Positions 195 through 61,944 are shown, counted from the stretch's first letter. The stretch: 64,000 nucleotides of DNA from an uncultured bacterium (GCA_963768165.1 CAVYHJ010000002.1:128676-192675), one strand, 5' to 3'. A program made the numbers and translations. Notes: generated by a model from the sequence alone, not told the origin.

Positions 195-1301
195 TTAATC
201 CGCGAAGAGGGGTCGTTTGTAGCCGAGGAGGCGGGCGTATTGGTCGGGGTGTTGGGAGATAAATTGGGAGATGCGGTCGGCGATTTTCTGAGTGTTGGTG
301 ATAATGTCTTTTTCGGAGTCGCCGGTTACGGTTAGTTCTATGGGAGAGTCAATAATAATTCGGTGGCGGTAACTGGGAGTCAGGCGCAGGGTGTATAACG
401 GCAGGATAGGCGCGCCTTCCCGTAAGGCAATCGCCACGGGACCTTGAGAGAAAGAAGCTTTTCGACCCGCCAGATTAACGAAAACCCTGTTTTTACCACC
501 GGCACCATCTATGGCAATCGCCAAAAGTTCATTGCGTTTTAAACAGCGAAATGCTGGTAATAGGGATTGGCGGAGATAAACGAATTTGGCAGGAAGATTC
601 AGTTCCAGAGTGTGCATTAACTTTAAAACCCGTTCCAACATGGGGGTTGGTAAGGGCATAGTTTCGGTGTCGGGAGAACCACCACCCCCTGCCCCCTCCT
701 TACCTACTGTAGAGACGTAACATGTTACGTCTCTACCGGAGTCAGGGGGAAGGGGGGTGGTTAATTTCTTTTGAATTCCAGAAGACTGTAACGATTCGGG
801 GATGTGGTGTTCGGAATCCATTTCTTCCTTTAAATCTTCGGGCGTCAATCCGACTTGGTTTAAGGGATACCCGCGATAGACCAGAGCGGGCATAAGCATT
901 TGCGCGTTGGCAATATGCGGATGAGCAATGATAACTCCCTTGCCTTTGGCTAAGGCTTGTTTGAGATGTTCTTCTCCAACCAATGCAGTATAAAAATCAA
1001 TCGGTTGTTTCATAAGTTTGGGATACAGCAGGACATCCAACTGATTCCAGAAAAACATGTAGACACCGATTTTAACAATGTGTTGATTTTCCTGTTCCGA
1101 GAGTTGCCGCCCCAAATTCATTTTTGAAAGTTCAGAGCGGATTTTGGTTTTGCGCCGTCCATTAATGAGATAAATAAGCCAAGCCATAAAATCCCCAATT
1201 TTGTATGCCAGAGAAATGGGGATAGCGGACATGAACCAACGAAAGGGATACCAGAATAACCAGCGGGAGAAGTCTTTTAACAATAATTTAAAAAGGTTCA
1301 T
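195..1301 (-). CDS. Lipid A biosynthesis lauroyl/myristoyl acyltransferase-like protein (LpxL/HtrB family). It carries an in-frame insertion of about 30-35 aa encoded by a palindromic element.
   Basis: 368-aa ORF with an N-terminal membrane anchor and an AHPH...acyltransferase core typical of the Lip_A_acyltrans family. It is about 60 aa longer than typical LpxL. The extra segment ([25 protein letters not shown]) is encoded exactly by the 28-bp palindrome and its GC-rich inverted flanks at 678-766. Confidence 0.7.
   Translation of the reverse strand: MNLFKLLLKDFSRWLFWYPFRWFMSAIPISLAYKIGDFMAWLIYLINGRRKTKIRSELSKMNLGRQLSEQENQHIVKIGVYMFFWNQLDVLLYPKLMKQPIDFYTALVGEEHLKQALAKGKGVIIAHPHIANAQMLMPALVYRGYPLNQVGLTPEDLKEEMDSEHHIPESLQSSGIQKKLTTPLPPDSGRDVTCYVSTVGKEGAGGGGSPDTETMPLPTPMLERVLKLMHTLELNLPAKFVYLRQSLLPAFRCLKRNELLAIAIDGAGGKNRVFVNLAGRKASFSQGPVAIALREGAPILPLYTLRLTPSYRHRIIIDSPIELTVTGDSEKDIITNTQKIADRISQFISQHPDQYARLLGYKRPLFAD
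709..736. repeat. Family A perfect 28-bp palindrome GTAGAGACGTAACATGTTACGTCTCTAC, copy 1. It is intragenic and embedded in a longer imperfect inverted repeat spanning about 678-766.
   Basis: Exact palindrome. The flanking arms ACCACCCCCTGCCCCCTCC and GGGGGAAGGGGGGTGGT are mutually inverted. Confidence 0.9.
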
Positions 1302-1329
1302 AATGCTTATTTTTCTTTAAGTAACTATT

Positions 1330-1357
1330 GTAGAGACGTAACATGTTACGTCTCTAC
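1330..1357. repeat. Family A perfect 28-bp palindrome, copy 2, in the intergenic gap between the wzx-like and lpxL-like genes.
   Basis: Identical 28-mer to copy 1. Confidence 0.9.
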
Positions 1358-1367
1358 ACGGCTTATT

Positions 1368-2828
1368 TTATGTTCCAATCGGTCCCGGCGGACGTAATAA
1401 TGAACGGAACATACTCATTTCTTTTTCCGTAAAGGTGCGGATAATAAAAAGAATGGAAATATATACCAGTAATCCCAATGGAATCATCAAATACCACAGG
1501 TATCCCCGGAAAGGATAAAAAATCAATCCGGAGAGTAGTCCTGCAATCAGAGGACGGGGAATTTGTTGCAGAATCTTTTTAAGAGAGACGGTTTGACTCA
1601 CAAAATAAAGCAACACAAGAAATAAGGCAATATATGAGGAAATAGTCCCAATGCTGGCACCGACTGCGCCCAGGTGATAATATTTAATCAAAATAAAATC
1701 TACCGAGGCATTGACCACCAGACACGTCCCGCTGCCGATATACAGCGCGCTCTGGTGACCGGTGGCAATCAAACTGTGGTTCATCAATAATTCGACGAAC
1801 ACAAAGAATGTACTCCATATCAGGATTTGCAAACAAGTCCCCGACCGCGCGAAGGCATCGGTAAAAAGGGTGGTTATAATGGGTGAAGCGTACAAAAACC
1901 CAAAAACCATAATCGGGAGGCTGAGAATAAAATAAAGTTTAAATGTGGAGACAAAAATGCTTTCAATATCATTCGACTGACCGGCACGGGACAATACCGG
2001 AAACAGCGCCGTAGTCAATGCCAAGGGGAAAATATTTAATTGGAGTAGGATTTGATAGGGGTAATAAAAAAAAGCAATTTCCCTATAGAGGGAATATCGT
2101 TGAATAATTAAACCGTCAATTCGTAAATAACCCTGGGTGAGCAAGACCGAAATGCCTATCAGTAGGGCGCTAAGAAAAATTGTTTTAACTCTTTCCCAAT
2201 CGTGGTTTGGCGCCGGAGTGACAATTGAACGGCTTCTCCATAAGACGTAAGCCAAGCGTAAAAAATTTCCGGTTGCCGTAACCACAAACAACCAAACCCA
2301 ATTCCATTTCAGCCAGACTATCAACAATGTCAATGCCAGGCAAACAGAACGAAAAATGATTGTGGCAATCGCTTCATAATCCATCCGCTCAAAGGCATTG
2401 AACAAACTTATATAGTTCGCGGAAACAACATTCAACATTTCTGAAACGATAGCAATCAATAAACCATATTTCATGCCGCGGGTAATGGGTAGATAGTTGG
2501 CAAGAAGAAAAATAATGACAGAGCACAGTATTCCTAATAGGAATCGCAAAATTAAACTGGCACGGAGATAACTTGGCGCGAGAGACTTGTCTACTGCTAC
2601 ATCCCGTATCACGATTTGAGCCAATCCCGCGTTGGCTAAGGAAAAAACCAATCCGATGAGAATGATGACATAGGCATATTTACCATTCACATCCACCCCA
2701 AAATTTGCCAATAAATAGCGGGCTGAAACCCAAATGAGCAACATGCCGATCCCGGCATCCATCCCGCGGGCAATGAGAATAAATAGAGAATTACGCGCGA
2801 CTGTTTTGGAAGTTGAAGACATCCTCAC
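1368..2828 (-). CDS. Polysaccharide/O-antigen flippase of the Wzx/PST family, a multi-TM oligosaccharide translocase.
   Basis: 486 aa with about 12-14 predicted TM helices. The N-terminus resembles polysaccharide biosynthesis (PST/MOP) transporters, and the gene sits next to wzc/wza-like genes. Confidence 0.7.
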   Translation of the reverse strand: MRMSSTSKTVARNSLFILIARGMDAGIGMLLIWVSARYLLANFGVDVNGKYAYVIILIGLVFSLANAGLAQIVIRDVAVDKSLAPSYLRASLILRFLLGILCSVIIFLLANYLPITRGMKYGLLIAIVSEMLNVVSANYISLFNAFERMDYEAIATIIFRSVCLALTLLIVWLKWNWVWLFVVTATGNFLRLAYVLWRSRSIVTPAPNHDWERVKTIFLSALLIGISVLLTQGYLRIDGLIIQRYSLYREIAFFYYPYQILLQLNIFPLALTTALFPVLSRAGQSNDIESIFVSTFKLYFILSLPIMVFGFLYASPIITTLFTDAFARSGTCLQILIWSTFFVFVELLMNHSLIATGHQSALYIGSGTCLVVNASVDFILIKYYHLGAVGASIGTISSYIALFLVLLYFVSQTVSLKKILQQIPRPLIAGLLSGLIFYPFRGYLWYLMIPLGLLVYISILFIIRTFTEKEMSMFRSLLRPPGPIGT

Positions 2829-2892
2829 TCCTTAAAGGCTATAGCAAAATAGATTACAGAATTCCAATTCATCGGCAATCCTATGGAGCCGA

Positions 2893-4953
2893 TTACTTCA
2901 CGCCGTTAAGAATCATACCGGTTGGAGTTATCCCTGTTTCCTGCAAAATCGCGTTTGCCTGCTCAACATGTACCGGTCGGGTCATCCCAAACCGTGTAAT
3001 TAAATAGGATTGGTCCGCGGATATTGAAAGTAAGGCGCCAAAACGGGAAACAGTAAGTGCCGGCGTATCAATCAAAATAGCAGGATATTCCTTTTGCAAA
3101 TCGCGCAAGACTGCTGAGAATTTTTCGATATCCCAATTGGAACTGCTTCCGACACGCAGGATGGAAAGATTGGGTACCGCGGTGCCAACAATTTGGTTAC
3201 GCGCTTGTTCAAGGGTCAATGGAACAGGGTTCTCTTTCACCGGGATATTGAATAATGAACCCAGTGCCGGAGAAATTACATTCGCGTCAATCAACAATAC
3301 TTTTTCACCGGACTCCGCACGGATGGTACCCAGCGCGGTGGTAAGGAATGTTTTCCCTTCACCCGGTAAAGCACTGAATAAGGACAAGATAGATTGATTT
3401 TTACCGGCTTTTAATTTCCAATGGGTTACGATTTCCTGTGCTTGCTGACGAGCAGATGGTGATAAAAATCCAGAGGACTGGATATTTCCGCTTACGCTTG
3501 AACTCTGGTTGACAACACCGACAACGGGTATATTGCCAATCCCACGAAGATGTCCGACATGATAAATCCGGTCATCCACATAATCTACAACAAATATCGC
3601 ACCGATGCCAAAGAACAATCCAAGCGCAATAGCAAGAATGAGAACAATCTTTTTCTTTGGAAAATAGATATATGATTTTACGATGGTCTTATCCGTCGGT
3701 ACCGGCGCGGGAGAAAAGAGTGCCAGGTTGTCTGTATTTACATTGAGAAGCGCTTTGGCGGCTTCCAAACTCCCCAGGTATCCTGTGTACGCCGAATTTA
3801 ATATACCGACGACCCTGGTTAAACGGTTATATTCTGTTTCTTTTCTTGATAAATCGTCCAAGCGGGCGACCACAGTATCCAATTGCTCTTTGGAAATTTC
3901 AATAATCGCTTGTTGTGCAATCTCATCCGTTTCCGTGTCACCCAATTCCTGAAGCAAGGTATCGTAATAGGAGTTCCGTGTTTTACTTTCCTGGGAAAAT
4001 ATCTTGTCAATTTGCTCTTTTAATTGCCGGCGGCTGCTTTCGACTTGTTGCTGGTCTGTTTTGACTTGAGGATGTTCCTTGGTATAAATCAACAAATCAC
4101 TGTCCTCTTGTCGCTCATAAGTAAGTAGATTGGCTTTGATATTTTCGATTTGCGGGTTTTCTGCGTAGGTGATGGTACTTAATTTGAACTCCGGTTGCTT
4201 GGCAAGTTGGTCAAGCAGCGCTTTTTTCCTTTTAATATCTACTTGGAGTTGTTTATCCGCGCTATCAATGGTCTGTTCATAACTCACTTGCATGGAAAGT
4301 TCATCCACGCGATAGGTACTCAGATCGGTAACATGTTCCTTTTGCCGAAACGCCAAAGTGGAATCTTCCGCGGCGGTCAGTCTAGCCAACATCTTCGGAA
4401 TTTCTCCCTCAAAAAATTTAATGGCAGTTTGCGCCTTATTTTTGTTGGAAATGACAACTTCCTTGCTAATTTCATCGGCAAAAGTATTGGCAATGTCAGC
4501 CGCTTCTTTGAAATTGGTGGATACTCCATCAATCTCAATAACTTCCGTATTTTCGGTATTGGATATAATGACCCCGCGACCCATGCCGATAATTTTGATG
4601 ATTCCGCCGTTGACAAAATCGGAAGGGGTATATAATTTTCCACTGTGGGTTTTAAGTTGTAAGCGTTCCGCCACCCGTAACATAATCGGATCGCTTTCCG
4701 CGATGGTTAATGCATTGGTGGCAAAGTTATCGGAGTTCAATTTCCCCAAATCGTTGGGAGAACCGCTTACAAATTCCGGGAGATAGTCCTGTTTCATGAC
4801 CAGAAGGTACACTGGAACTTTATAAACTGCACCCACCAATACATACTGATAAACCAGAGAAAATAACAGTGCCGTGAGTATGGTTACCCCGAAAATCCAG
4901 TAGAATAATTTCCTTCGTTGCCAAAATACAATCCAATAACGTCTTAATTCCAT
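2893..4953 (-). CDS. Exopolysaccharide chain-length determinant / tyrosine autokinase (Wzc/GumC/ExoP-like polysaccharide co-polymerase).
   Basis: N-terminal TM, a long coiled-coil periplasmic region, a second TM, and a C-terminal P-loop domain with Walker A LPGEGKT and a D-x-P Walker B-like ILIDTP. Confidence 0.8.
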   Translation of the reverse strand: MELRRYWIVFWQRRKLFYWIFGVTILTALLFSLVYQYVLVGAVYKVPVYLLVMKQDYLPEFVSGSPNDLGKLNSDNFATNALTIAESDPIMLRVAERLQLKTHSGKLYTPSDFVNGGIIKIIGMGRGVIISNTENTEVIEIDGVSTNFKEAADIANTFADEISKEVVISNKNKAQTAIKFFEGEIPKMLARLTAAEDSTLAFRQKEHVTDLSTYRVDELSMQVSYEQTIDSADKQLQVDIKRKKALLDQLAKQPEFKLSTITYAENPQIENIKANLLTYERQEDSDLLIYTKEHPQVKTDQQQVESSRRQLKEQIDKIFSQESKTRNSYYDTLLQELGDTETDEIAQQAIIEISKEQLDTVVARLDDLSRKETEYNRLTRVVGILNSAYTGYLGSLEAAKALLNVNTDNLALFSPAPVPTDKTIVKSYIYFPKKKIVLILAIALGLFFGIGAIFVVDYVDDRIYHVGHLRGIGNIPVVGVVNQSSSVSGNIQSSGFLSPSARQQAQEIVTHWKLKAGKNQSILSLFSALPGEGKTFLTTALGTIRAESGEKVLLIDANVISPALGSLFNIPVKENPVPLTLEQARNQIVGTAVPNLSILRVGSSSNWDIEKFSAVLRDLQKEYPAILIDTPALTVSRFGALLSISADQSYLITRFGMTRPVHVEQANAILQETGITPTGMILNGVK

Positions 4954-5096: not shown

Positions 5097-6341
5097 CTAT
5101 TTATTCACCATGCTTTCCACTGAATCGGTCAAATATACTTTTTTTAATTCTTTATATAAATCATGAATATGCGGCGCACAACCGTAAATGACATGCGGAT
5201 TCGCATTTCGGACATGTTCTTGTTGTAATACATTCACGGCACAATTACCGAAAACCCATACGTCTCCCGCTGGATTTTGCAGATTCGGAGTATTGGGCAT
5301 GGGTATTCCGACAAAGAAAGTTAATGGGGGTAGTTGAGTTAAAAGTCCATCGCGGTCCATTTTATCCAGTGCGTGTCGCATGGCGGACAAACAACCACGG
5401 CATGTTCCCGACTCAATCGCCAAAATATTCTCAAATATTCCCGCGGCACTTAATACCGGACGACGGAATCTCCTCTGGACTTCACTGATTTTCGCTCCCT
5501 TGATATCGATATTATTTAAATCCATTTCACCGAATCCTTCCCAATGAGCAATTCGGTTAGTATCCACTTCTTCGGGCGCAATCATCATGGTTTCGCAGGC
5601 CACTGAATCCGTGGCGACAATATCCTGCCCGGTAATAATCACATTCATGTCTTTGATAGTTGAACCACTAAGCGGCGCTTGACCGTCCATCGCCCATATT
5701 CCATCAATCACGGTTAAATGCGGCGGAATTGCCCGATAAATATCCACGACTTTATAGGAGATATCGTTGCGATGGAACATCAACCGCTCTTCATCAAATA
5801 GTAACCCATGCAGATTTTTGATTCCCAACGTAGCGAGCGTGTGCATGTGCGTCTTCATTTTGGGGACATTAATAAAAAAATCGGCTTCAAGCACGGTTTT
5901 GGGTAAACTCATTTCCCGTAAAATTCTTCCATCAGGATTGGCTACCCGGACAATTTCATCTTTATCCAGATAGATAATTTCCGCTCCTGCTTTTTCCAAA
6001 TCTTCCTGCATTTCTGACAATTCAAACGCCGTTTCGGAAGGCAGTTTATACCCTGGATTTTCTCCGACCATAACCCGTACGGCACCCGCTTCTTTGGATA
6101 ACCGGATCAATGCAATCAAAACCCGCGGGTCGGTTGTGATCCCCGGTATCTCATGGGGGTTGGGTCTGACCAGATTGGGTTTCATGAAAACGGATTTGCC
6201 TTTTACCAGTGAAGCGAAATCACAAACAGCATACAGTGCATCTTTGACCATCTCCGTAATGATAGACAAACTTTTCTGGCTATACTTGACGGGAGTCTCA
6301 GGAATTTCTTTATGATAAGAAATATAGACGATGGGTTTCAT
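5097..6341 (-). CDS. DUF362 domain-containing protein.
   Basis: The VFMKPNLVRPNP...TTDPRVL pattern matches the DUF362 family core. It lies within the polysaccharide export locus. Confidence 0.55.
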   Translation of the reverse strand: MKPIVYISYHKEIPETPVKYSQKSLSIITEMVKDALYAVCDFASLVKGKSVFMKPNLVRPNPHEIPGITTDPRVLIALIRLSKEAGAVRVMVGENPGYKLPSETAFELSEMQEDLEKAGAEIIYLDKDEIVRVANPDGRILREMSLPKTVLEADFFINVPKMKTHMHTLATLGIKNLHGLLFDEERLMFHRNDISYKVVDIYRAIPPHLTVIDGIWAMDGQAPLSGSTIKDMNVIITGQDIVATDSVACETMMIAPEEVDTNRIAHWEGFGEMDLNNIDIKGAKISEVQRRFRRPVLSAAGIFENILAIESGTCRGCLSAMRHALDKMDRDGLLTQLPPLTFFVGIPMPNTPNLQNPAGDVWVFGNCAVNVLQQEHVRNANPHVIYGCAPHIHDLYKELKKVYLTDSVESMVNK

Positions 6342-11674: not shown

Positions 11675-11857
11675 GTTGGAATACAGTGTAGCGACGTCCC
11701 CGGGAGTGGTGATTTTTAGCGGGACGTCTCAACCATGAGTCAACTAATTATGTTTTTGAGAAGTAATTTATTCGCAGTTTGTAAGCTGGCAATAAAGAAC
11801 GGATTGACCGATTGATTCAGTTATGTAATACTATCAGGTTCCCAATTTAATAAAATT

Positions 11858-24456: not shown

Positions 24457-24640
24457 AGAAAACCTTTGACATTTGAGATCACTGAAAAAGTGACTTTCTC
24501 TATCTTTTTAAAAAACTTTCTGCAATTGCAGAAAGTTTATCTCCAATGAAATCAAGTGTTTAGAATAATTGTACGTTCGCACAATTATTATTTTCCACAT
24601 AAATTGGACTTTTTCAGAGGTCTCATTTGTCAAAGGTTTT
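24457..24640. repeat. Structured element of about 185 bp bounded by 32-bp imperfect terminal inverted repeats (AAAACCTTTGACATTTGAGATCACTGAAAAAG ... CTTTTTCAGAGGTCTCATTTGTCAAAGGTTTT). The perfect 26-bp palindrome lies inside it.
   Basis: The arms match at about 28/32 positions as reverse complements. MITE-like or long-hairpin architecture. Confidence 0.5.
24513..24538. promoter_or_regulatory. Perfect 26-bp palindrome AAACTTTCTGCAATTGCAGAAAGTTT, a candidate dimeric-regulator operator upstream of the GH-like gene triplet.
   Basis: Exact reverse-complement symmetry. A same-length related site AAACTTTCCACGGTAGCGGAAAGTTT occurs at 42012-42037 upstream of a prepilin gene. Confidence 0.5.
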
Positions 24641-28093: not shown

Positions 28094-28942
28094 ATGCTCA
28101 ATTCAGCCACTATCATTATTCCGGCGTATAATGAGGAACAATCTATCGGGCCGGTCATTGATGAGATTCAACAGGTATTAAAAAATGAAAACCTTTCCAT
28201 TCCCATCCTGGTTGTGGATGACGGGTCTACGGATAAAACCTCAGACATTGCCAAATCCAAACAGGTTCAAGTCTTTCGCCATGAAGAAAATCGTGGGTAT
28301 GGCGCTGCATTAAAAACCGGAATCCATCGCGCGACGACCGAATTCATTATCATTATGGATGCCGATAAAACCTATCCCGCGTCCGTGATTCCTCAAATGT
28401 TACAATACACCGAAATGTATGACATGGTCGTAGGGAATCGGAATACCAAGCCGTCCATGCGGGTTTTTGCCAAATGGTTCTTGGTTAAGTTGGCGAATTT
28501 CCTTGCCGAGACCAAAATCCCGGATTTGAATTCAGGATTTCGTCTAATCCGTAAATCTGCTTTGGAACGGTTTTGGTTTATCCTGCCCAATGGGTTTTCC
28601 TTCACGACCACCATTACCCTCGCTATGCTTTGCAACGGGTATGCGGTAAAATATATTCCAATAGAGTATCGCGAGCGTTCGGGCGTATCTAAAATCAGAC
28701 CGGTTCGAAATACGTGGCAGTTTTTGATTCTCATTATTCGGACAATTGTCTATTTTAACCCGTTGAGAGTCTTTCTACCGGTCGGGTTTATTATGATATT
28801 CGGCGGTATATTTATCGGCTTTTATACACATTTTGCTCAGGGCGGAGTTTATAAAGTAACCACAACTACCATGGTTATTGGCGGAGTTCAAATCCTGATG
28901 TTAGGCTTTTTAGCCGATCTCATCGCTAAAAAGTCGAAATGA
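28094..28942 (+). CDS. GT2 polyprenol-phosphate glycosyltransferase (GtrB/ArnC-like) with C-terminal TM helices.
   Basis: IIIPAYNEE...VVDDGSTDKT...DADKTY motifs, and two C-terminal TM segments as in GtrB-type enzymes. Confidence 0.75.
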   Translation: MLNSATIIIPAYNEEQSIGPVIDEIQQVLKNENLSIPILVVDDGSTDKTSDIAKSKQVQVFRHEENRGYGAALKTGIHRATTEFIIIMDADKTYPASVIPQMLQYTEMYDMVVGNRNTKPSMRVFAKWFLVKLANFLAETKIPDLNSGFRLIRKSALERFWFILPNGFSFTTTITLAMLCNGYAVKYIPIEYRERSGVSKIRPVRNTWQFLILIIRTIVYFNPLRVFLPVGFIMIFGGIFIGFYTHFAQGGVYKVTTTTMVIGGVQILMLGFLADLIAKKSK

Positions 28943-29062
28943 TACGGTAAATACAAGTTTAAATAGCAATTTATATTCGAAAATGAAGCGAGGCTAAAGT
29001 GGAGGGGGACTGGAATTGAAAAAAGCAATTCCAGTCCCCCTCCGTAACCAAATCGGTATAAA

Positions 29063-38660: not shown

Positions 38661-39818
38661 ATGGCTAAAAATTTTTTATTTACCTCGGAATCTGTCACGG
38701 AAGGCCATCCTGATAAGGTTTGTGACAATATTTCCGATGGGATACTTGATGCTCTGTTTGCGCAAGACCCGAACAGCCGCGTCGCGGTAGAAACCCTCGT
38801 AACCACCGGACAAGTGGTTGTCGCAGGAGAAGTTACCACCAAAGCGTTTGTGAATATCCCTAATATTGTGAGAAATATCATCAAGGAAATCGGATATGAT
38901 GATTCATCCACTGGGTTTGATTACCATAGTTGCGGAGTTCTCAACGCGATTCATGAACAATCGCCCGATATCGCTATGGGTACTAATGATAAAGTCGGTG
39001 GTGCCGGTGACCAGGGCATGATGTTCGGATACGCTTGCAAAGAAACGCCCGAATTAATGCCTGCGCCTATTTCTTTTGCTCATAAATTATCCAAACGTCT
39101 TACCGAAGTCCGCAAAAAAGGAATTCTCAAATATCTCCGGCCTGATGGAAAAACTCAGGTCACCATAGAATATCAAAATGGTAAAATGAAACGGGTTCAT
39201 ACCGTTGTCATCGCCGCCCAGCATGACCCGCATGTCAAAATGAGCAAGCTTCAGGAAGATATTAAAAAGCATGTCATTCAAAAAGTAATCCCCGCCCGTC
39301 TACTAGATAAAAAAACCATCTATCACATCAACGCCACCGGACGGTTTGAAGTCGGTGGTCCCCACGGAGACACCGGATTAACCGGACGCAAGATCATCGT
39401 GGATACTTACGGCGGTTGGGCGTCTCATGGCGGTGGCTGCTTCTCCGGAAAAGACCCGACGAAGGTTGACCGCTCTGGAGCTTATGCCGCACGCTATGTT
39501 GCCAAGAATTTAGTGGCTGCGGATATTGCCGACGAAGTGGCTATTGAACTTGCCTATTGTATCGGAGTACCGGAACCCGTCTCTATTGAAGTGGATACCA
39601 GAGGCACAGGTATTATTTCAGATGAAGAAATCGTCAAACTTATTGAACAGCATTTCGATTTGACCCCCAGAGGAATCATCACGACTCTCAAATTGCGCCG
39701 CCCGATTTATCGTAAGACCGCCGCCTATGGCCATTTCGGTCGCCATGAAGAAGAATTTACCTGGGAAAGAACAGATAAAGCCGCCGCTTTGAAAAAAGCT
39801 GCCGCGAATTTGATATAG
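38661..39818 (+). CDS. metK: S-adenosylmethionine synthetase.
   Basis: Canonical MetK motifs ([19 protein letters not shown], the GGGAFSGKD-like loop). Confidence 0.95.
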
Positions 39819-39843
39819 CAAATTGATGAAAACACAATTCTTT

Positions 39844-41151
<1,308 letters not shown>

Positions 41152-41254
41152 ACCACCTAAATTCAAAACATATTCAGAAGCTAAAAAGCTTTGTACGAAT
41201 GTACAAAGCTTTTTTATTTAACTGATTTTATTGAAACTGAAACAAATTAAGGTA

Positions 41255-41800
41255 TTAGGGGCCAAAACGGATAATGTCGCCGCCACTAAGCGTTCCGTTG
41301 GTCGGGTCATAGAGAATAGTTGCTTCATTATCAGTTAAATCGGGCCCGTAACTCCAAATGACCCATTGTGCTGTTGGCTGGGGAATACCGAGAGTTGTCG
41401 TTCTATCATATACCTCACCTGGAGAAAAATCTTCGGTAAAATAATAATATGGCAGTAAAGGATTGGGGCTCGGATTATTGATTCGTGATTGAGAAAAAAT
41501 ATCGAATGGAAGAGATGAGAGATAAGCGACCGGGGTGGTCAAATAGATGGGAGTAAAATGTTCATATTCCACAGTCGCGTCAAAAGGATTATTATAAGTG
41601 GGATAGGTGTTGTTGTCGGTTTTGTAACTTTCCAAAGCCAGGGCAATGGTTTGCATTTCCGCCTGGACTCTAGCCACCTTTGAGCGGATTTGCGCGTTGC
41701 GAAAATTGGGTAACGCAATCGCGGAGATTATGGCAATAATCGCTACCACAATCAATAATTCGATTAATGTGAAAGCTCGTTCGTTAAATAGCCGGTGCAT
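41255..41800 (-). CDS. Prepilin-type N-terminal cleavage/methylation domain protein (type II secretion pseudopilin / type IV pilin-like).
   Basis: The N-terminal motif RAFTLIELLIVVAIIAIISAIALPNF is the classic class III signal plus N-methylation helix. Confidence 0.8.
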   Translation of the reverse strand: MHRLFNERAFTLIELLIVVAIIAIISAIALPNFRNAQIRSKVARVQAEMQTIALALESYKTDNNTYPTYNNPFDATVEYEHFTPIYLTTPVAYLSSLPFDIFSQSRINNPSPNPLLPYYYFTEDFSPGEVYDRTTTLGIPQPTAQWVIWSYGPDLTDNEATILYDPTNGTLSGGDIIRFGP

Positions 41801-42011
41801 AGTTGGGGTTCAAATCCACTTTGTTTAAATAAAATTTTAGCATAAATGAACCCAAGTTATATATTCAGCCGTATACCTCCGCCTTCATAACGGCATCAAA
41901 AGAGAATCAGTGAGGGGATTTTTTTACTTCTTGGGATAGGGTGGATTTCTATCAATGGAATTCTTGCGCAATTGTACAAGAATTATTGCCTCATTGATTT
42001 TATTGAGGATA

Positions 42012-42037
42012 AAACTTTCCACGGTAGCGGAAAGTTT
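42012..42037. promoter_or_regulatory. 26-bp operator-like palindrome AAACTTTCCACGGTAGCGGAAAGTTT upstream of the prepilin gene.
   Basis: Same arms and same length as the perfect palindrome at 24513-24538. Confidence 0.45.
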
Positions 42038-42146
42038 CCCCAATATTGGTTCGTTTGATGAAAAAGGGATGGGATTTAAGATTTAGAAGAGAATTAATTC
42101 GTTGGAAGGCGTCGGGAAATCCATTTCATTCCATTCCCGATGTATC

Positions 42147-51945: not shown

Positions 51946-52929
51946 TTAAGCAGGGAATCTTTGTATCCATGGAACATCTTTTGAGAACACACCTGGATTC
52001 CAACCGACTGCAGGTAACAAATCACCCAACGCTGATGCCAATTGTTCAAGTTTATGTTGTATAGCATTGTCATAGTGTGCTATTTCTTCACTTTCAGAAT
52101 TCAAAACACCAAATACAATACCTCTACCTTTAATGGGAACAACAATTTCCGATTTAGTCTCGATTATGGCTTGAAAATAATTTGATCTTTCATGGACATT
52201 ATTGGCATTTACTGTTTTCCCAGAAGAATACGCCAAACCTAATAAGCCTGCAAATGTGGCTATACGATATCTTTGTTTATGACGGGGAATCATATCTGCC
52301 ACAGCTACAAGTTGACTAGAATATGCAGATGTAATTATCAAAAATATCTGATTGTAGTCTGTTTCTGTAGTACGTACCAATTCATGTAAAGCAATCTCTA
52401 GAAGTTCAACCAAGTCACCCGAATTCTTTAAAAGATTAATATAAGAATTTTGTAATGTGTCAGGAGGATTTACTTGAGAAAGATATCTACCAATTGATGT
52501 TGCAATCTTAAATGCTAAATCTTCAGGGAATGTAAATTTATCATACATTAAATTCTTTCCTATTCGTGATTTAAAGGATTGCAATTTAGATTTACCCGGT
52601 TCATTTTCAATCATTTTGGGTGGCCAAGGATATTCATCATTAACAATAAAACAAAAGATGGGTTTTTGTAATTTCTTTGCATAATTATATTCCTGTTCAG
52701 TGATTGATAATTGTGTATCAGGTAATATATATCCATATCTATATGCATATATACCAACAAACAAATCACAGGATTCAATCTCTTTAAAACAAACCTGTAT
52801 TGGTTCCACCGGACGCGCACCTAATACCTCCATTCTGCCAAGATGATATCCTAGACGTTCTAAAGCCTCTGCTGCAGCTTTTCGATATTCTTTCAAGTCA
52901 ATATATGTAGAACTTAGAAATACATTCAT
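51946..52929 (-). CDS. DUF4062 (TIR/flavodoxin-like) N-terminal domain fused to a C-terminal GAF-like domain. It is the first gene of an AT-rich island.
   Basis: VFLSSTYIDLKEYR...SCDLFVGIYAYRYGYI matches the DUF4062 core. The C-terminal part has a GAF-like pattern (VFGVLNSESEE). About 33% GC. Confidence 0.5.
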   Translation of the reverse strand: MNVFLSSTYIDLKEYRKAAAEALERLGYHLGRMEVLGARPVEPIQVCFKEIESCDLFVGIYAYRYGYILPDTQLSITEQEYNYAKKLQKPIFCFIVNDEYPWPPKMIENEPGKSKLQSFKSRIGKNLMYDKFTFPEDLAFKIATSIGRYLSQVNPPDTLQNSYINLLKNSGDLVELLEIALHELVRTTETDYNQIFLIITSAYSSQLVAVADMIPRHKQRYRIATFAGLLGLAYSSGKTVNANNVHERSNYFQAIIETKSEIVVPIKGRGIVFGVLNSESEEIAHYDNAIQHKLEQLASALGDLLPAVGWNPGVFSKDVPWIQRFPA

Positions 52930-53027
52930 ATATTATTCATTTTTTGAGGTTGAAGTTCTACTGAAACGGAGCCAAGAAATGAAGTTTGAAATGAAATCTA
53001 TGTTATTCAATCTTTGACAGAACATAA

Positions 53028-53510
53028 TTAGATTAACTTATATGGAAAGAGTGTCTTATTCTCTTTATCCTGAAACACCTTATCACTATATAAGCCAAAT
53101 ACTTGTACTAATTGTTGTTGGCTAAATATAGCGGCTTTATTTAGACCCCATGTACCACCTCGACCTTTACTAAGATATTTGAAATCAAAATAACTAATTT
53201 TATAAATATCTTTAATCTCATTAGTTTCCCACATCATAGGAAGCCATGTGCCCTGCCATGGGTCAAGACCAACGATATGGAGTACTCTATAAATATCCTC
53301 ATCTTTTTTAGGAAAATTGTATGTAATATGCAATCTTCCATTATTACAATTCCTGCATAAATGCACCAATTTATCTTGGTTCCATCCATTTACATAAATA
53401 TCATCCCATAAAAAATAATAGATACTTATATGATTACATACTTCTTTAAAATTATTTATTCGATTATGTCCATAATCACATGTATCACATTCCCACCAAT
53501 AGCCAGCCAT
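53028..53510 (-). CDS. Hypothetical Cys-rich (putative zinc-ribbon) protein in the AT-rich island.
   Basis: CDTCDYGH and CRNCNNGRLH CxxC pairs. No recognised family. Confidence 0.4.
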   Translation of the reverse strand: MAGYWWECDTCDYGHNRINNFKEVCNHISIYYFLWDDIYVNGWNQDKLVHLCRNCNNGRLHITYNFPKKDEDIYRVLHIVGLDPWQGTWLPMMWETNEIKDIYKISYFDFKYLSKGRGGTWGLNKAAIFSQQQLVQVFGLYSDKVFQDKENKTLFPYKLI

Positions 53511-53582
53511 GTATTAACACCTTATTCTGTTGAGTGATGCGTTGCGAAATATAACCTGCCTCATTCTTGACATTGAAAAATA

Positions 53583-54404
53583 TTAGGTTACCTCTTGTGA
53601 TATTAACCTTAGAATAGAACCAGTTATATATAAATAGAATTCAACCAATCTTGGTTCAGGATTAGTCGGTATTTCTTGTTTCTTTTTTCCGTGTCGTGAG
53701 GAATATTCATGAGCAATTTTGCAATAGTGATGTAATATTTGACCCCAATGGCTATCAAGATTCAATTTTTGAATCAATTGATAGATTAATTTCTCGTCAT
53801 CAAGTGATTTGTTGGTTTGCAATATTGCTTTAACTATCCCTTCTAAAGCACTATATAAATTTGTAATTGCATCAGAATAATTATTTCTCAAATAAAAATT
53901 TAAAGCATTGGAGTATTTTTCTCTGCTATCTGGAAATTTGTCCAGCCATGCTAAATTTTCAATTATCAAAACGTCATCAAGTTCTGTAGCCCCTGACTTA
54001 ATAATATTTTTACCATCAAATCTAAAACCTATATTCAATACCATAGAATCGAATACATTTTTTATTTCAGATGAAAAATATTTGAACGCTGATGAAGAAC
54101 CTTGTTCCTGTTCAGATATATATGAATGAGAAATACTTAAAATCGCATGTAAAAGTATCATATTTTTTTCTATAGATCTATCGATATCTTGATAGTTGTT
54201 AATTAAATTTGTAAAGAACTCACCTGTTTTTGAACTCGGTAAGCCTAGTGTGAAAACCACTTGTTTATATAATCGTGAATAATTATGCATCCAATAGGTA
54301 TTGTCATGGTCTAATATGATTCTCAATCTATTCTTGAATCTTTCATATTCTTCTTCTAAATCCGTTTCAATTCCTAGATTTTTATAAATATTTTTTAAAC
54401 TCAT
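53583..54404 (-). CDS. Hypothetical 273-aa protein in the AT-rich island.
   Basis: ORF only. It has the same orientation and low GC as its neighbours. Confidence 0.4.
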   Translation of the reverse strand: MSLKNIYKNLGIETDLEEEYERFKNRLRIILDHDNTYWMHNYSRLYKQVVFTLGLPSSKTGEFFTNLINNYQDIDRSIEKNMILLHAILSISHSYISEQEQGSSSAFKYFSSEIKNVFDSMVLNIGFRFDGKNIIKSGATELDDVLIIENLAWLDKFPDSREKYSNALNFYLRNNYSDAITNLYSALEGIVKAILQTNKSLDDEKLIYQLIQKLNLDSHWGQILHHYCKIAHEYSSRHGKKKQEIPTNPEPRLVEFYLYITGSILRLISQEVT

Positions 54405-54556
54405 AATATTTCATTTATTCCCTTGTGTTAGAAACAAAGTAAATTTCTTAACGCTCTATTATACTGGATTCCAATTTGCATGGGAATGACAAAAGAGAAC
54501 TAACAAGGTCGGAAACAATTCAGATTAGAAATTGGATGGCAGATTAAAAAATGCTG

Positions 54557-54584
54557 TTGACAAAAAGGAAATTGGATGTATAAT
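54557..54584 (+). promoter_or_regulatory. Near-consensus sigma70 promoter (TTGACA, 16-bp spacer, TATAAT) in the island-edge noncoding region. No plus-strand ORF lies downstream of it.
   Basis: Read directly. It is followed by the 16-bp palindrome ATCATTTTAAAATGAT (54595-54610). Confidence 0.45.
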
Positions 54585-54630
54585 TTAAAGACAAATCATT
54601 TTAAAATGATGATAGTTGCATAAAAACAGT

Positions 54631-54663
54631 CATCGGGAAAGAGAAATGTGTTCATTCCCGATG
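54631..54663. repeat. Hairpin family B variant (CATCGGGAA-N15-TTCCCGATG).
   Basis: Same stem core, CGGGAA/TTCCCG, as the other three copies. Confidence 0.5.
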
Positions 54664-54839
54664 TGATTGGATGTTAAATTTAGTATAAGATGAAATTAGT
54701 TTGGGTGTGGAAATAGTTTAAAAGTGATTAAAAAGGGTAGTTTTGAGGGGTTTTTGTAAAAAAGCTACCTGCTCTCCTCGATAAGGACATTCGAGGACAA
54801 GTTTACAGTTTCAATCTAATCAATCCTCTATAAGGCAGG

Positions 54840-54865
54840 GATGAAGGAGATCGATCTCCTTCATC
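54840..54865. repeat. Perfect 26-bp palindrome GATGAAGGAGATCGATCTCCTTCATC.
   Basis: Exact reverse-complement symmetry. Confidence 0.9.
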
Positions 54866-54910
54866 CCAACTCCGCTTCATCTCCGTTTCTCCTCCGTTTC
54901 AAGTACGCTT

Positions 54911-54965
54911 CAGGTTCGTTTAAAAACCAGTTTAAGGTTTAAAGTTTAATGTTTACGGTTAACAG
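54911..54965. repeat. Iteron-like array of about 6 tandem GTTTAA(N) heptamers.
   Basis: GGTTCGTTTAAAAACCAGTTTAAGGTTTAAAGTTTAATGTTTACGGTTAAC shows a 7-bp periodicity. Confidence 0.6.
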
Positions 54966-55064
54966 AGGGGAGATAAGGGAAAGGATATTGGGAGAGGGCC
55001 GAAACAGAGAGACATTTTGGAGGGTTTGATGAATCAAACCCCTACAATTGGGTAGAAGAGAAGA

Positions 55065-56597
55065 TTAGAGAATGGTTGGGGGATGGTATTCGCCAAAAAG
55101 GGAGCGGAGGAGGGTGCAGATTTCACCCAAAGTGACTTTGTTTTTGACGGATTCTATAAGGATGGGCATTAAAGTGTCCGCAGTGCGGACACTTTTTTCC
55201 AATTTATCGAGACTTTGGTTGACTTTTTTCATATCCCGATTTTTTTTGAATTTAAGAACGCGTAGGCGTTGTTCTTTTTCGATTTTGAGATTTAATTTAA
55301 AGAGGGGAGGGTTGGAATCTTTTTGGGATTGGAAGGCATTGAGTCCCACAATGATTTGTTTTTTTGATTCGACCGCTTTTTGGTAATCATAGGCAGACTT
55401 GAATATTTCTTTTTGGACGTACCCGGATTCAATGGCTTTCAACATTCCACCCATTTGGTCAACCTTGGCAATATATTCGTTGGCTTCCCGTTCCAAGGTA
55501 TCGGTCAATTCTTCCACATAAAACGAACCTCCCAAAGGGTCGGGTTCATGGGTAACGCCTGATTCATAAGCGATGACTTGTTGAGTGCGAAGAGCAAGGA
55601 GAACGGAATTTTCCGTGGGCAGACCGAGGGCCTCATCTTTTGAGTTTGTATGCAGAGATTGACACCCGCCGAGAACCGCCGCGAGAGCTTGTAGGGTTGT
55701 ACGGACGACGTTGTTATCGGGTTGTTGCGCCGTGAGCGTGGAACCGGCAGTTTGGACATGAAAGCGCAAGAGTTGAGCGCGTTTCTCTTTGACCTTAAAA
55801 CGATGTTTGAGAATCTTCGCCCACATCCGGCGAGCGGCACGGAATTTGGCGACCTCTTCCAAGAAATTATTGTGGCAATTGAAAAAGAAAGCTATACGTT
55901 GCGCAGCGTGTTCGATGTTGACGCCGGCTTTTTTGGCAGCAGTGAGATAGGCGATGCCGTCCGAAAGCGTGAAAGCGAGTTCCTGCGCCGCGGTCGCACC
56001 CATTTCGCGCATGTGATACCCGCCGACACTGATAGTATTCCATTTGGGAACGTGCTGAACGCAAAATCCAACGAGGTCGGTAATCAGGCGGAGCGAAGGT
56101 TCGGGCGGGAAGATATAGGTGCCGCGCGCGATGTATTCTTTGAGAATATCGTTTTGAGTGGTGCCGGAAACTTTGTCCCAAGAGACTTTTTGTTGGTCAG
56201 CAACAGCGAGATAAAATGCCAACAAAATAGACGCGGTAGAGTTGATGGTCATGGAGGTAGAAACTTTATCAAGAGGGATGCCATGGAACAAGGTTTCCAT
56301 ATCTTCGATGGTGGAAATCGCGACCCCAACCCGACCGACTTCCCCTTTTGCCATGGGGTGGTCGGAGTCGTACCCGATTTGGGTCGGGAGGTCAAAGGCG
56401 ACGGAGAGCCCGGTTTGTCCCTGCTTGAGGAGATATTTGTAGCGAGTGTTGGATTCTTTGGCGTCACCGAACCCGGCGTATTGGCGCATAGTCCAGAGTT
56501 GTTTTTTGTACATCTCCGGATAGATACCGCGGGTGAAGGGGAATTCGCCGGGAGAGCCAATGTTCCAGTTGTGGTTTCGTTTTTTCATATATGCCAT
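55065..56597 (-). CDS. Methylmalonyl-CoA mutase catalytic (large, N-terminal TIM-barrel) subunit.
   Basis: The [24 protein letters not shown] and other MCM substrate-binding-barrel motifs. It is separated from its B12-binding partner by the AT-rich island. Confidence 0.9.
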
Positions 56598-56988: not shown

Positions 56989-56998
56989 AGCAACTGTT

Positions 56999-57093: not shown

Positions 57094-57167
57094 TAAAAAG
57101 ATTACCATCCTCTACATGACAAGTAAAGGCTATACCCGCAATGACAAAATAAAAGAAATTTTGTTCC

Positions 57168-57572: not shown

Positions 57573-57591
57573 AAAAATCAAAACCTAACAC

Positions 57592-57705: not shown

Positions 57706-57716
57706 ACAAAGCATCT

Positions 57717-58901: not shown

Positions 58902-58980
58902 AAAGTGAACTGTTGGAAATCATAATGGAATTGCGCGAAGGGGTCAAGGAGATGAGATGAAATATGGGTTTGTGGAACAA

Positions 58981-59661
58981 TTATTTCCCGGAATTTCCAT
59001 GGACAATTACTGTAAATTCCCCTTTGACGGCGCGTTCCGGCAGATGAGAGATAATTTCCTGAACGGGGGCGCGGAGAATTTCCTCAAATTTTTTAGTCAA
59101 TTCGCGCGCAAGGGTCATGGTACGATTTCCCAATACTTCTGCTATATCTTCGAGGAGCGCTTGGATACGGTAAGGCGATTCATAAAAGACAAGAGTACAT
59201 TCCAATTCTTTCAAAGTTTCCAAGACTTTTTTTCGAGCTACGGTTTTTCGCGGAAGAAAACCAATAAATAGAAAGGAATCCGTTGGTAATCCGGAAACGG
59301 AAAGGGCGGTAATCATGGCGGTGACTCCCGGGATGGGAACGACCGGAATTTTTTCTTGGATAGCGCATTGAATCAAGTGATACCCCGGATCGGAGATACC
59401 GGGCGTACCAGCGTCCGAAACCAGGGCGATATTTTTACCGGAGAGTAACTGATGCACCAATTGCGGGGCTTTGAGATGTTTATTATGGTCGTGATAACTG
59501 GTTAAGGGTTTATGGATATCAAAATGGTTTAAGAGATGGAGGGAATGGCGGGTATCTTCGGCGGCGATTAAATCCACTTCTTTAAGAATTCGCAAGGCGC
59601 GCAGCGTAATATCTTCGAGATTTCCGATGGGTGTTGAAATGACATAGAGGGTTCCCGGCAT
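58981..59661 (-). CDS. rsmI: 16S rRNA (cytidine1402-2'-O)-methyltransferase.
   Basis: YVISTPIGNLEDITLRAL...AAEDTR motifs of the RsmI tetrapyrrole-methylase-like family. Confidence 0.85.
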   Translation of the reverse strand: MPGTLYVISTPIGNLEDITLRALRILKEVDLIAAEDTRHSLHLLNHFDIHKPLTSYHDHNKHLKAPQLVHQLLSGKNIALVSDAGTPGISDPGYHLIQCAIQEKIPVVPIPGVTAMITALSVSGLPTDSFLFIGFLPRKTVARKKVLETLKELECTLVFYESPYRIQALLEDIAEVLGNRTMTLARELTKKFEEILRAPVQEIISHLPERAVKGEFTVIVHGNSGK

Positions 59662-59854
59662 AAACTAGTTTATACGGTTTTCATTTATTTCCAAAAAGTT
59701 TTGTCATTCCATGCTGAAAGACCCAAAATACCCAACAGAATTAACAGCATGATATAGACTACATATCCAACTTCCATAATACTCCTCTCCAATTACATAG
59801 TTAACGGTTTGCCCAGTTATTATACCTTGAAACGCACCAAAACGTTGATGTCGG

Positions 59855-60931
59855 TTATTTTCCGATTACCGAACCATCCGGCGAAATTTTCTTGACCCGT
59901 TCAAGACCGGTATAGACCAACGCTAACAGTTGGGTTGATAATTTACCATTGGGCGGCAATTTTTTCTGATTGCCTTCTTTAATGACTTGGGGGAACCCGC
60001 CGGTAATGGCGTAACTGGTCCAGGGTTCCAGCGCCAGATTATAGGTACGGCTGTACCACGGGTATCCATACCCACCGCCAAAAACCATCCAGTACCAGAT
60101 ATGCGGGAACACCTTTTTATCCCAGCACATCCCGAATCCGATTTTCTTTTTCGCATTCGTGATTCCATACCAGCCATCTTCCAATTCGGTAATAAATGCC
60201 ATATCAAAAGACTGGGAGGATTTCGAGGGAATACGGGACAAGTCAACTTTACTGACGCCATCCACGGCGGTGGCCATAGGCCAATCCGCATAAATCGCCG
60301 GTTGCAGCCGATTGGTGGTAGAGACATTATCCACCGATTCCACTTTTTTTGCAGGCACATCAATAATACAATGCTCATCGAGAAAGGGTTCGCCAATCGC
60401 GGGATGGTGTCCCCACATAAAATCCATTTCTTCCCCGCCCTCGTTGGTCACCGTTTCTTCCATAAATAAAACCGGTTGGTTTTGTTTCAGTCGTAGAGTT
60501 TTTTCAATTAGGAAGGGCGTGCGATAAGTCCGCACCCAAAATTTCACGGCAATTTCATCCGGTTCATCTTTACAAATTTGATATTGCCAGGGAATCAAAC
60601 TCACTTCGCCATGCAATCCCCATTCCGCCTCTTTATTTTTGGACGCCACACTCCCCACGGGAAAAATTTCCTGCCATCCCCCGTGATAATAATCCATAAA
60701 GAAACCCTGTTCCGGGGAATTAGACGGGACAAAATCGGATGGGTGATGAAAACCAATTGGCGACCGCCACATAAAATCCATATCCATGGGTTTATACAAA
60801 AACTCAAAAATATCTGTTCCTTTATCTACCAGGATACTGACCCGCAGGAGTTCATTTTCCATGATTACCGTTCGGAATCCATGGAAGGTATATGCATCCG
60901 TCACGCGACAACCATAATTTCGCAAATTCAT
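59855..60931 (-). CDS. Aldose-1-epimerase-like (galactose mutarotase-like fold) protein.
   Basis: Beta-sandwich mutarotase-like motifs. The preferred start is ATG 60931, preceded by an AGGAGGA RBS. The track start is 60982. Confidence 0.45.
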   Translation of the reverse strand: MNLRNYGCRVTDAYTFHGFRTVIMENELLRVSILVDKGTDIFEFLYKPMDMDFMWRSPIGFHHPSDFVPSNSPEQGFFMDYYHGGWQEIFPVGSVASKNKEAEWGLHGEVSLIPWQYQICKDEPDEIAVKFWVRTYRTPFLIEKTLRLKQNQPVLFMEETVTNEGGEEMDFMWGHHPAIGEPFLDEHCIIDVPAKKVESVDNVSTTNRLQPAIYADWPMATAVDGVSKVDLSRIPSKSSQSFDMAFITELEDGWYGITNAKKKIGFGMCWDKKVFPHIWYWMVFGGGYGYPWYSRTYNLALEPWTSYAITGGFPQVIKEGNQKKLPPNGKLSTQLLALVYTGLERVKKISPDGSVIGK

Positions 60932-61119
60932 CAGAATTCCTCCTCTGCTGATAATAATACGCAAAGGCAAGAATATCGTCAATGTTTGCTCAAATGTAGT
61001 CCGATTCTATAAGAAATAAAAGCGAAAGAATACAAAGACTCTCCTTCTGGACTATAATATCTACAAGCTCCCCGGACAGGAGATATATAAATCAAGAGAA
61101 TGAAAGCGAAATATTTTTT

Positions 61120-61920
61120 ATGTTTGCAAAAATAATTACCGGATTTTTCTGGGACAGTTACGACAATTTGGGAAAGCTCTTAGTGGCGAATTTGGTTTGG
61201 TTTTTGTGTAACCTGCCAGGATTTATGTTGGGGTATGGGATATTTCATATACCCTTGAATCTATTTTGGATTTTTCTACTGCTCCCGTTTGCGTTATTTT
61301 CTGTTACCACTATGGGGCTGTATCATTTCACATCTCTCCTTGTAGAACAAAAGCAAATTGGAGTAAAAGAATTATTTCTCGGCATGAAAAAATACGGCGT
61401 GAGAGGAACTTTATACTCCTGTGTGCTTGTTTTGGGATTTTTTGTTTTATTGGTCAATATCGATTTTTATCTGAATCTATCGTTAGGATTTCACTGGATT
61501 GGCGCGATACTAGGGGGATTTGCTTTTTGGGTCAGTTTATTTATATTATTGGTTTGTCAATATTTTTTCCCGATATTAGTCAAACAGGATTTACCGATTA
61601 AAAAACTGTTATTGCGCTCCTCTCTTTTGGTTTTGGACAATTTCGGAATTAGCCTGTTGATTGCATTGAACTCACTGGGATTATTGATATTGACCATCAT
61701 AACCGGCGTAGGACCGATCCTGTTTACCATGTCTTTGTTTACCTTATTTGCCAACAACGCATTATATGAAGTACTGGCGAAATATGATAAACAACCGCAA
61801 CCGACCTTAAAACCGGGAGAGAAACCAACATCCTGGCATCAAATTTTGCCTAAAGAAAAGCCCAAATGGCGACATGAAAATCGAGGTTGGAAAGATATCT
61901 TACGACCTTGGGATATGTAG
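61120..61920 (+). CDS. Hypothetical integral membrane protein (about 6 TM helices; DUF624/YesL-like, uncertain).
   Basis: Hydrophobic helices only. Its stop codon TAG lies inside the family A palindrome. Confidence 0.45.
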   Translation: MFAKIITGFFWDSYDNLGKLLVANLVWFLCNLPGFMLGYGIFHIPLNLFWIFLLLPFALFSVTTMGLYHFTSLLVEQKQIGVKELFLGMKKYGVRGTLYSCVLVLGFFVLLVNIDFYLNLSLGFHWIGAILGGFAFWVSLFILLVCQYFFPILVKQDLPIKKLLLRSSLLVLDNFGISLLIALNSLGLLILTIITGVGPILFTMSLFTLFANNALYEVLAKYDKQPQPTLKPGEKPTSWHQILPKEKPKWRHENRGWKDILRPWDM

Positions 61921-61944
61921 AGACGTAACATATTACGTCTCTAC
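61917..61944. repeat. Family A palindrome, copy 4 (GTAGAGACGTAACATATTACGTCTCTAC, with one central mismatch). It supplies the stop codon of the upstream gene and is followed by TTATTG.
   Basis: 27 of 28 positions match the other copies. Confidence 0.85.

Follow-up and report, generated by a model that had tools for sequence, protein, structure and literature searches.

The stretch analyzed here, referred to as the window, comprises 64,000 nucleotides of DNA from an uncultured bacterium (GCA_963768165.1 CAVYHJ010000002.1:128676-192675) and carries four copies of a short palindrome, the 28-mer GTAGAGACGTAACATGTTACGTCTCTAC. We argue below that these copies are very probably repetitive extragenic palindromes (REPs) associated with one subclass of transposase. 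A search of the whole 64-kb window located exact matches at 709-736, 1330-1357, and 39844-39871 and a fourth copy at 61917-61944 with one mismatch, a loop of CATA replacing CATG; these are the positions, and the single central change, given in a preliminary description of this DNA. No further match to the 28-mer was found in the window at up to three mismatches, and shuffled sequence (n = 100) gave no matches at all, indicating that none is expected by chance. All four copies consist of a perfect 12-bp stem and a 4-nt loop, with GTAG at the 5′ end and CTAC at the 3′ end. The copies and their immediate neighbors are as follows.

195-1301, minus strand: acyltransferase gene (Lip_A_acyltrans family), host of copy 1, with a reading frame uninterrupted across the insertion
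684-761, no strand assigned: outer GC-rich imperfect palindrome around copy 1, which is nested within it; arms CCACCACCCCCTGCCCCCTCC ... GGGGGAAGGGGGGTGG
709-736, no strand assigned: copy 1, exact 28-mer, in frame within the acyltransferase gene 195-1301 and encoding RDVTCYVST
1330-1357, no strand assigned: copy 2, exact 28-mer, within the 66 bp that separate 1368-2828 from 195-1301, two genes in tandem on the minus strand
38661-39818, plus strand: metK, upstream neighbor of copy 3
39844-39871, no strand assigned: copy 3, exact 28-mer, between metK and ahcY; alone among the copies in having a T-rich tail (TTATTTCT)
39895-41151, plus strand: ahcY, downstream neighbor of copy 3
61120-61920, plus strand: membrane-protein gene whose stop codon lies inside copy 4; its C terminus is kept to the final residue in homologs
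61917-61944, no strand assigned: copy 4, CATA loop; its GTAG foot gives the TAG stop (61918-61920), and its 3′ end lies against the stop of 61945-62532
61945-62532, minus strand: pseudopilin (N_methyl) gene, convergent on copy 4

The copies are predicted to fold strongly, at approximately −17 to −18 kcal/mol as RNA and −12 kcal/mol as single-stranded DNA, with z-scores of −5 to −7. Each is solitary: successive copies are separated by 621 bp, 38.5 kb, and 22 kb, with genes in between, and a CRISPR (clustered regularly interspaced short palindromic repeat) array was rejected on these grounds. The window contains no other GTAG-footed hairpin and no second one near any copy, and across its length there were no Rfam matches at the gathering threshold and no tRNAs. 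Two copies lie between tandem genes, one lies between convergent genes, and one is intragenic; sequences flanking the copies are not conserved from one copy to the next. Four copies in 64 kb would correspond to roughly 60 per Mb, a figure that is only an extrapolation.

The preliminary description placed the whole family at gene ends. Copies 2, 3, and 4 do lie immediately 3′ of genes, and copy 1 sits inside the acyltransferase gene. The open reading frame (ORF) at 195-1301 matches PF03279 (lipid A acyltransferase family; E = 2e-21) in two stretches. Two of the three frames through the palindrome contain stops, and this gene uses the sole open one, which yields RDVTCYVST. Its orthologs at 62 to 63% identity are 30 residues shorter precisely at the variable linker that holds copy 1, and they are without the entire 684-761 insert. 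In the closest relative (locus L220), these GC-rich arms are retained around an unrelated center with no 28-mer. From these comparisons, the 684-761 segment and copy 1 look like a nested insertion acquired in frame and in two steps. The outer GC-rich arm does not recur elsewhere in the window.

Copy 2 begins 10 nt past the stop of the Polysacc_synt gene 1368-2828 (minus strand) and ends 28 nt ahead of the ATG of 195-1301 (minus strand). The spacer that holds it (1302-1367) opens with AATAAGC and contains AATAAGC again 5 nt before its end; this 7-nt direct repeat may be due to chance or may be a trace of how the spacer arose. Copy 3 follows metK, as originally stated, at a distance of 25 nt past 38661-39818 (plus strand), and lies 23 nt ahead of ahcY. 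A Logan short-read contig from the same organism (L121, equal to window positions 39842-42129) begins 2 nt ahead of this copy, suggesting that REP copies are break points in assemblies of this genome. Copy 4 starts at the final base of the last sense codon of 61120-61920 (plus strand), and the claim that it contains the stop codon of the upstream gene proved correct (TAG, 61918-61920).

All four sites are without the 28-mer in related genomes. At the copy 2 site in L220, the two genes adjoin as TAA followed directly by ATG, with zero spacer. At the copy 3 site, L221, a relative whose MetK shares a 90%-identity cluster with that of the window, has a longer intergenic region without the 28-mer. 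At the copy 4 site in L222, well-aligned flanks hold CTTAAT where the window has T plus the 28-mer, and no target-site duplication is visible in this alignment with its clean flanks; in L223, the corresponding gene ends ATG TAA, and the hairpin that comes next is unrelated. The CATA loop of copy 4 recurs in another sample of the species to which the window belongs. The relatives with empty sites range from 76 to at least 90% amino acid identity. Identity of three of the four copies, together with four empty sites in relatives, indicates recent activity. In a separate observation, the metK-ahcY spacer of L221 carries a different imperfect inverted repeat at 1804-1924 (GAAGGTCTC ... GAGACACCTTC), and structured elements seem to turn over in this spacer.

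The palindrome is not confined to this organism. We scanned one genome per species (596 Gb) for the pattern GTAGAGACGT-N8-ACGTCTCTAC and classed the loci by record titles. The pattern occurs at at least 120 genome loci, whereas 20 fixed bases in a search space of this size would give approximately one match by chance. Among the matches listed, 69 are cyanobacterial, 28 are from Bacteroidota, 7 from Chloroflexota, 6 from Acidobacteriota, and 2 from Ignavibacteria; also among them are 2 gammaproteobacterial metagenome-assembled genomes (MAGs), 1 each from Desulfuromonas, Patescibacteria, and Rubrobacteraceae, and 3 unclassified loci. The outer 10 bp of the stem are set by the search pattern and so are uninformative for covariation, but 118 of 126 copies are paired at both free positions of the stem, with 11 dinucleotide types, where pairing by chance would be 1/16. 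The loop is CATG in 80 of the 126 copies, and most other loops (TATA, CGCG, AATT, and GGCC) are self-complementary too. These compensatory changes in the stem favor a hairpin structure, and the palindromic loop makes that hairpin identical on both strands.

At least 95 metagenome contigs contain the exact 28-mer, with 91 different pairs of flanks and GC contents of 32 to 59%. The window organism is the source of none of these contigs, which match it in the palindrome alone, and likeness of flanks between window and metagenome copies was rejected as short AT-rich chance matches. In approximately 20 of the metagenome contigs (within L125-L219; e.g., L128 at 5745-5845, L166, L195, and L173), the 28-mer is central in a conserved composite repeat of approximately 100 nt, CATTTTGGGTCGGCATCACTTGAATCGTGTACCACACCTC-[REP]-ATGAATTGAGGAAATTATTTTATCCATG; these contigs are mostly from Ga0099364 and JGI24702J35022, and the neighboring genes vary by contig. 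Ten viral or proviral IMG/VR contigs (L224-L233) contain GTAGAGACGT-N8-ACGTCTCTAC. A literature search with the literal string GTAGAGACG returned primer sequences only.

Sites in other genomes are biased toward the 3′ ends of genes. With an ORF-based gene proxy, 169 sites could be classified: 81 are tandem, 42 convergent, 14 divergent, and 32 within ORFs. The median distance to the upstream gene end is 48 nt (tandem and convergent sites), versus 137 nt to the next start (tandem sites). At 15 genes, the TAG of the foot serves as the stop codon, as it does at copy 4. In 60% of outward flanks, the first base beyond the palindrome is A, so that the extended form reads T-GTAG...CTAC-A.

We searched all fetched loci (1.4 Mb, chosen for carrying the motif) in six frames for REP-associated tyrosine transposases (RAYTs) and identified six RAYT-like ORFs, which match NF047646 (REP-associated tyrosine transposase, REP_Tyr_transpos) with E values from 4e-9 to 2e-16. 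One of them, in L022, also matches the Pfam family Y1_Tnp. The other evidence of identity comes from alignment, in which five of the six ORFs share the subclass 2.4 motifs NHxH, WQ, and YIxxNP. A profile built from these five ORFs retrieved at least 7,994 relatives, many of them titled "REP element-mobilizing transposase RayT," and had a single match in PDB, 4ER8, the E. coli TnpAREP. The hairpins found at the six genes are listed here.

L014, Bacteroidales: GTAGAGACG hairpins on both sides of the RAYT gene
L100, Bacteroidales: variant copy within the RAYT gene
L183, metagenome: variant copy within the RAYT gene and an exact 28-mer 18 bp past its stop
L186: exact 28-mer flanking or within the RAYT gene
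L201, metagenome: variant copies within and beside the RAYT gene, with an exact 28-mer 1.3 kb off
L022, Dulcicalothrix: single hairpin, 119 bp past the 3′ end

A hairpin thus lies within 150 bp of or inside all six RAYT-like ORFs, versus 278 of 1,195 other ORFs (Fisher P = 1.7e-4), a comparison that is relative rather than genome-wide because the loci were preselected for the motif. One of the six genes contains the exact 28-mer in frame, and the peptide RDVTCYVST of the acyltransferase recurs within the RAYT gene itself. The arrangement known as a REPtron, with hairpins flanking or inside the RAYT gene, was encountered in five other genomes or contigs (L014, L100, L183, L186, and L201).

These properties match a published class. 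Quentin et al. (2018, BMC Genomics 19:475; PMC6006769) described "double foot" REPs, with a 5′ GT[AG]G and a 3′ C[TC]AC, that belong with RAYTs of subclass 2.4, which are common in Cyanobacteria and Bacteroidetes and occur here and there in further phyla; REPs in frame inside tnpAREP genes are a unique hallmark of this subclass (PMC6006769). In the available part of their table, 28-nt REPs with 12-bp stems include GTAGAGACAAGGCATGCCTTGTCTCTAC (AesuA01), GTAGAGACGCACGGCCGTGCGTCTCTAC (CaggA01), and GTAGAGACGCAATGCATTGCGTCTCTAC (CchlA01). As far as that part extends, the window element agrees with these entries in its length of 28 nt, its GTAG and CTAC ends, its perfect 12-bp stem, its 4-nt loop (often CATG), and its head, GTAGAGAC(G), whereas its inner stem, ...GTAA-CATG-TTAC..., is not among the entries. 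The taxon range is also alike, as is in-frame insertion in genes, the RAYT gene included; the host differs in being a bacterial MAG that is not rich in HIP1. The same authors proposed that the double foot could derive from an inverted REP dimer via a central deletion (PMC6006769).

Like other REPs, the element is a short dispersed hairpin with GT[AG]G and C[TC]AC feet and compensatory changes in its stem, lies mostly downstream of genes, and is present or absent at orthologous sites, with no target-site duplication seen at the cleanly aligned copy 4 site. We therefore assign the four palindromes, with high confidence, to the GTAG-tagged REPs of the double-foot type linked to RAYT/TnpAREP subclass 2.4 (Bertels group 4). 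The preliminary suggestion of a REP-like element served by a REP-associated transposase is supported by the GTAG foot, the stem-loop, the match to published double-foot REPs, and the RAYT genes flanked or interrupted by the element elsewhere. The companion suggestion of a miniature inverted-repeat transposable element (MITE; 70 to 300 bp, with terminal inverted repeats and target-site duplications) was rejected, since the element measures only 28 bp, lacks an internal segment bounded by terminal inverted repeats, has flanks that are not conserved between window copies, and shows no duplication at the copy 4 site.

Comparison with other palindromic families sharpens this assignment. The REPs of E. 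coli, including those in bacterial interspersed mosaic elements (BIMEs), and their TnpAREP (RayT/YafM; 4ER8) offer one parallel: both they and the window element are short GTAG-footed hairpins with many dispersed copies, mostly downstream of genes, and both are tied to one HUH-Y1 transposase. The E. coli REPs, however, which belong to the proteobacterial subclass 2.2 (PMC6006769), are imperfectly palindromic, contain a bulge, carry a single foot, and often occur in BIME clusters, whereas the window element is perfectly palindromic, has a foot at each end, and occurs as solitary copies. The wider superfamily of GTAG REPs, as described by Di Nocera et al. (2013, BMC Genomics 14:522; PMC3733652), favors unidirectional and convergent ORF pairs, supplies with its termini the TAG stop of flanking ORFs, is sometimes found wholly within ORFs, and has families in Cyanobacteria, Chloroflexi, and the Planctomycetes-Verrucomicrobia-Chlamydiae (PVC) group. 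The tag, the ORF-pair locations, the TAG stops, and the intragenic copies are all alike in our counts; in that superfamily, however, the tag is unpaired and at one end, while in the window element it is at both ends and within the stem. The string GTAGAGAC is absent from that paper and from those of its supplements that were searched. REP doublets forming hairpins (REPINs; Bertels and Rainey 2011, PMC3116915) are likewise nonautonomous palindromic elements, thought to be mobilized by RAYTs, that form within-genome populations under one master sequence. The window element was nevertheless rejected as a REPIN: it is a lone 28-nt perfect palindrome without a spacer and with no nearby second GTAG hairpin, and its 14-nt halves do not form hairpins.

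A reading of the 28-mer as a DNA uptake sequence was considered and rejected. Two further families resemble copy 1 in particular. Small dispersed repeats described in Nostoc by Elhai and colleagues in 2008 are reportedly tiny palindromes that also occur in frame in genes and nested. Rickettsia palindromic elements, likewise tiny repeats, interrupt protein genes without shifting the frame and can be nested in other repeats, as copy 1 is. The Rickettsia elements carry a CGTC tag, not GTAG (PMC3733652). The window copies are of a published REP type; the observation is real but ordinary. The residual points, namely the cross-phylum identity of the 28-mer and its strand-symmetric design, do not exceed what the literature on subclass 2.4 implies.

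How such copies would arise can be sketched by analogy with E. coli TnpAREP, which recognizes a single-stranded hairpin with a GTAG foot (cited in PMC6006769), and with the TnpA of IS200/IS605. The 28-mer would fold into a hairpin when DNA becomes single stranded, for example, at a replication fork; a RAYT would recognize the hairpin and its GTAG foot; and cutting and rejoining of the strand would copy or move the unit without a target-site duplication. Because the palindrome is perfect, usually including the loop, both strands would offer the same hairpin. Copies would survive where they are least harmful, that is, after genes, between convergent or tandem genes, or in the open frame within tolerant protein loops. 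Effects on neighbors would then be by-products of the landing site and not the purpose of the element; they may include a TAG stop supplied to a gene, the separation of coupled genes, and, at metK, partial termination or a hairpin at the 3′ end of the mRNA.

Several points weigh against this assignment and the mobility that it implies. No RAYT gene was found within the 64-kb window. All NF047646 scores in the other genomes are below the curated cutoff (37 to 60 bits versus 80), the Y1 gene of L022 has a hairpin on one side only, and the proximity test compares genes among motif-bearing loci. Absence in relatives cannot tell gain here from loss there; we infer gain, four independent losses being less parsimonious. 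To our knowledge, mobilization by a subclass 2.4 RAYT has not been shown experimentally, and we know of no biochemistry on double-foot REPs.

The first of these points favors the alternative that the copies are inert relics, left by a past RAYT spread or by transferred DNA, with the active RAYT gone and the hairpins nearly neutral. Consistent with this idea, none of the best 120 of at least 7,994 RAYT homologs lies on the 1,257,976-bp source contig of the window, and the loop mutation of copy 4 is fixed in two samples. The lack of a RAYT is, however, weak evidence, because the best 120 of approximately 8,000 matches were examined and the genome has further contigs, and decay agrees less well with three of four copies still identical and with sites that are empty in relatives as close as those described above. 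We regard relics as unlikely, although less so than the two alternatives that follow.

The preliminary description also proposed that the element doubles as a transcription terminator. In its full form, this alternative holds that the palindromes are intrinsic (Rho-independent) terminators that evolved at or were recruited to gene ends, their identity reflecting selection for an optimal hairpin. The RNA hairpin is indeed stable (approximately −17 kcal/mol), three of the four copies lie just 3′ of genes, and copy 3, alone among the four, passes a terminator-like scan with its 12-bp stem, five G-C pairs, and the tail TTATTTCT. Over approximately 450 flanks, T is mildly enriched, reaching 36 to 44% at outward positions 5 to 7. 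Of the T-rich plus-strand sequence said to follow three copies, that after copy 2 is irrelevant, since both neighbors of this copy are on the minus strand, and copy 3 alone has a T-rich tail. Copies 2 and 4 have no U-tract on their transcribed strands, copy 1 lies within coding sequence, and 32 of the 169 sites elsewhere are within ORFs. The same 28-mer recurs in at least 95 unrelated metagenome contigs of 32 to 59% GC and in RAYT genes, and independent terminators would not share 28 identical bases across phyla. Moreover, a distinct, canonical bidirectional terminator-like hairpin follows ahcY at 41183-41214. We consider terminators a very improbable explanation of the family; with one T-rich tail in four and one coding copy, termination is at most a local side effect, and an effect on termination, or an mRNA 3′ hairpin or attenuation effect, is plausible at metK by analogy.

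That the four sites are a regulon of operators for a protein that binds DNA as a dimer, either a transcription factor or a nucleoid-associated protein, is the least credible proposal: the two-fold symmetry does run perfectly through the loop, beyond what a simple hairpin needs (CATG in 80 of 126 copies, with other loops mostly self-complementary), but divergent promoter regions are avoided (14 divergent versus 123 tandem or convergent sites), the inner stem varies freely as long as it stays complementary (11 types), which is in keeping with a structure and not with base-specific contacts to double-stranded DNA, the genes adjacent to the four copies are functionally unrelated, the sites are absent at orthologous positions in close relatives, and the motif is tied to RAYT genes.

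Other inverted repeats and local features of the window were recorded in passing. The terminator-like hairpin at 41183-41214 is a perfect single-copy palindrome, has A and T runs, and lies in intergenic DNA between ahcY and a convergent pseudopilin gene. The two pseudopilin-like genes, 41255-41800 and 61945-62532, have N_methyl matches and weak T2SSG and ComP_DUS matches, and both converge on genes that end in a hairpin. A divergent intergenic region at 11688-11733 contains GTAGCGACGTCCC and its near-complement GGGACGTCTCAAC, 20 nt apart; it was rejected as a decayed REP relative because its fold is no better than that of shuffled sequence (z = −0.9). Three further single-copy perfect palindromes are intergenic: one at 29001-29043 with 18-bp arms and an A-rich loop, after gene 28094-28942; one of 26 bp at 24513-24538, with halves AAACTTTCTGCAA and TTGCAGAAAGTTT; and one of 30 bp at 54838-54867, with halves GGGATGAAGGAGATC and GATCTCCTTCATCCC. 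Positions 52001-56000 have the lowest GC content of the window (0.357 versus approximately 0.43) and include a 660-bp AT-rich intergenic stretch (54405-55064).

Beyond the class assignment, a more speculative extension concerns the system as a whole. A near-frozen 20-base core and an identical 28-mer across phyla and across GC contents of 32 to 59% make horizontal movement of RAYT and REP together possible. Group 2 and 3 REPIN-RAYT systems, by comparison, are said by Bertels and colleagues to be vertically inherited. We think it doubtful, if worth stating, that one RAYT-REP system moves horizontally between phyla or that the copies here are orphaned and kept for host uses; such uses may include those of a stop-codon donor, a spacer between once-coupled genes, or the in-frame peptide RDVTCYVST, and the site encoding this peptide in the RAYT gene might be self-regulatory.

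Annotators of this genome should mask the 28-mers as REPs and should not call them terminators or regulatory sites. REP insertion accounts for the 30-residue insert of the acyltransferase and for the stop codon of 61120-61920. With at least 120 genome loci and at least 95 metagenome contigs, double-foot REPs of subclass 2.4 are very widespread, and they permit clean comparisons with empty sites in work on the insertion of such elements.

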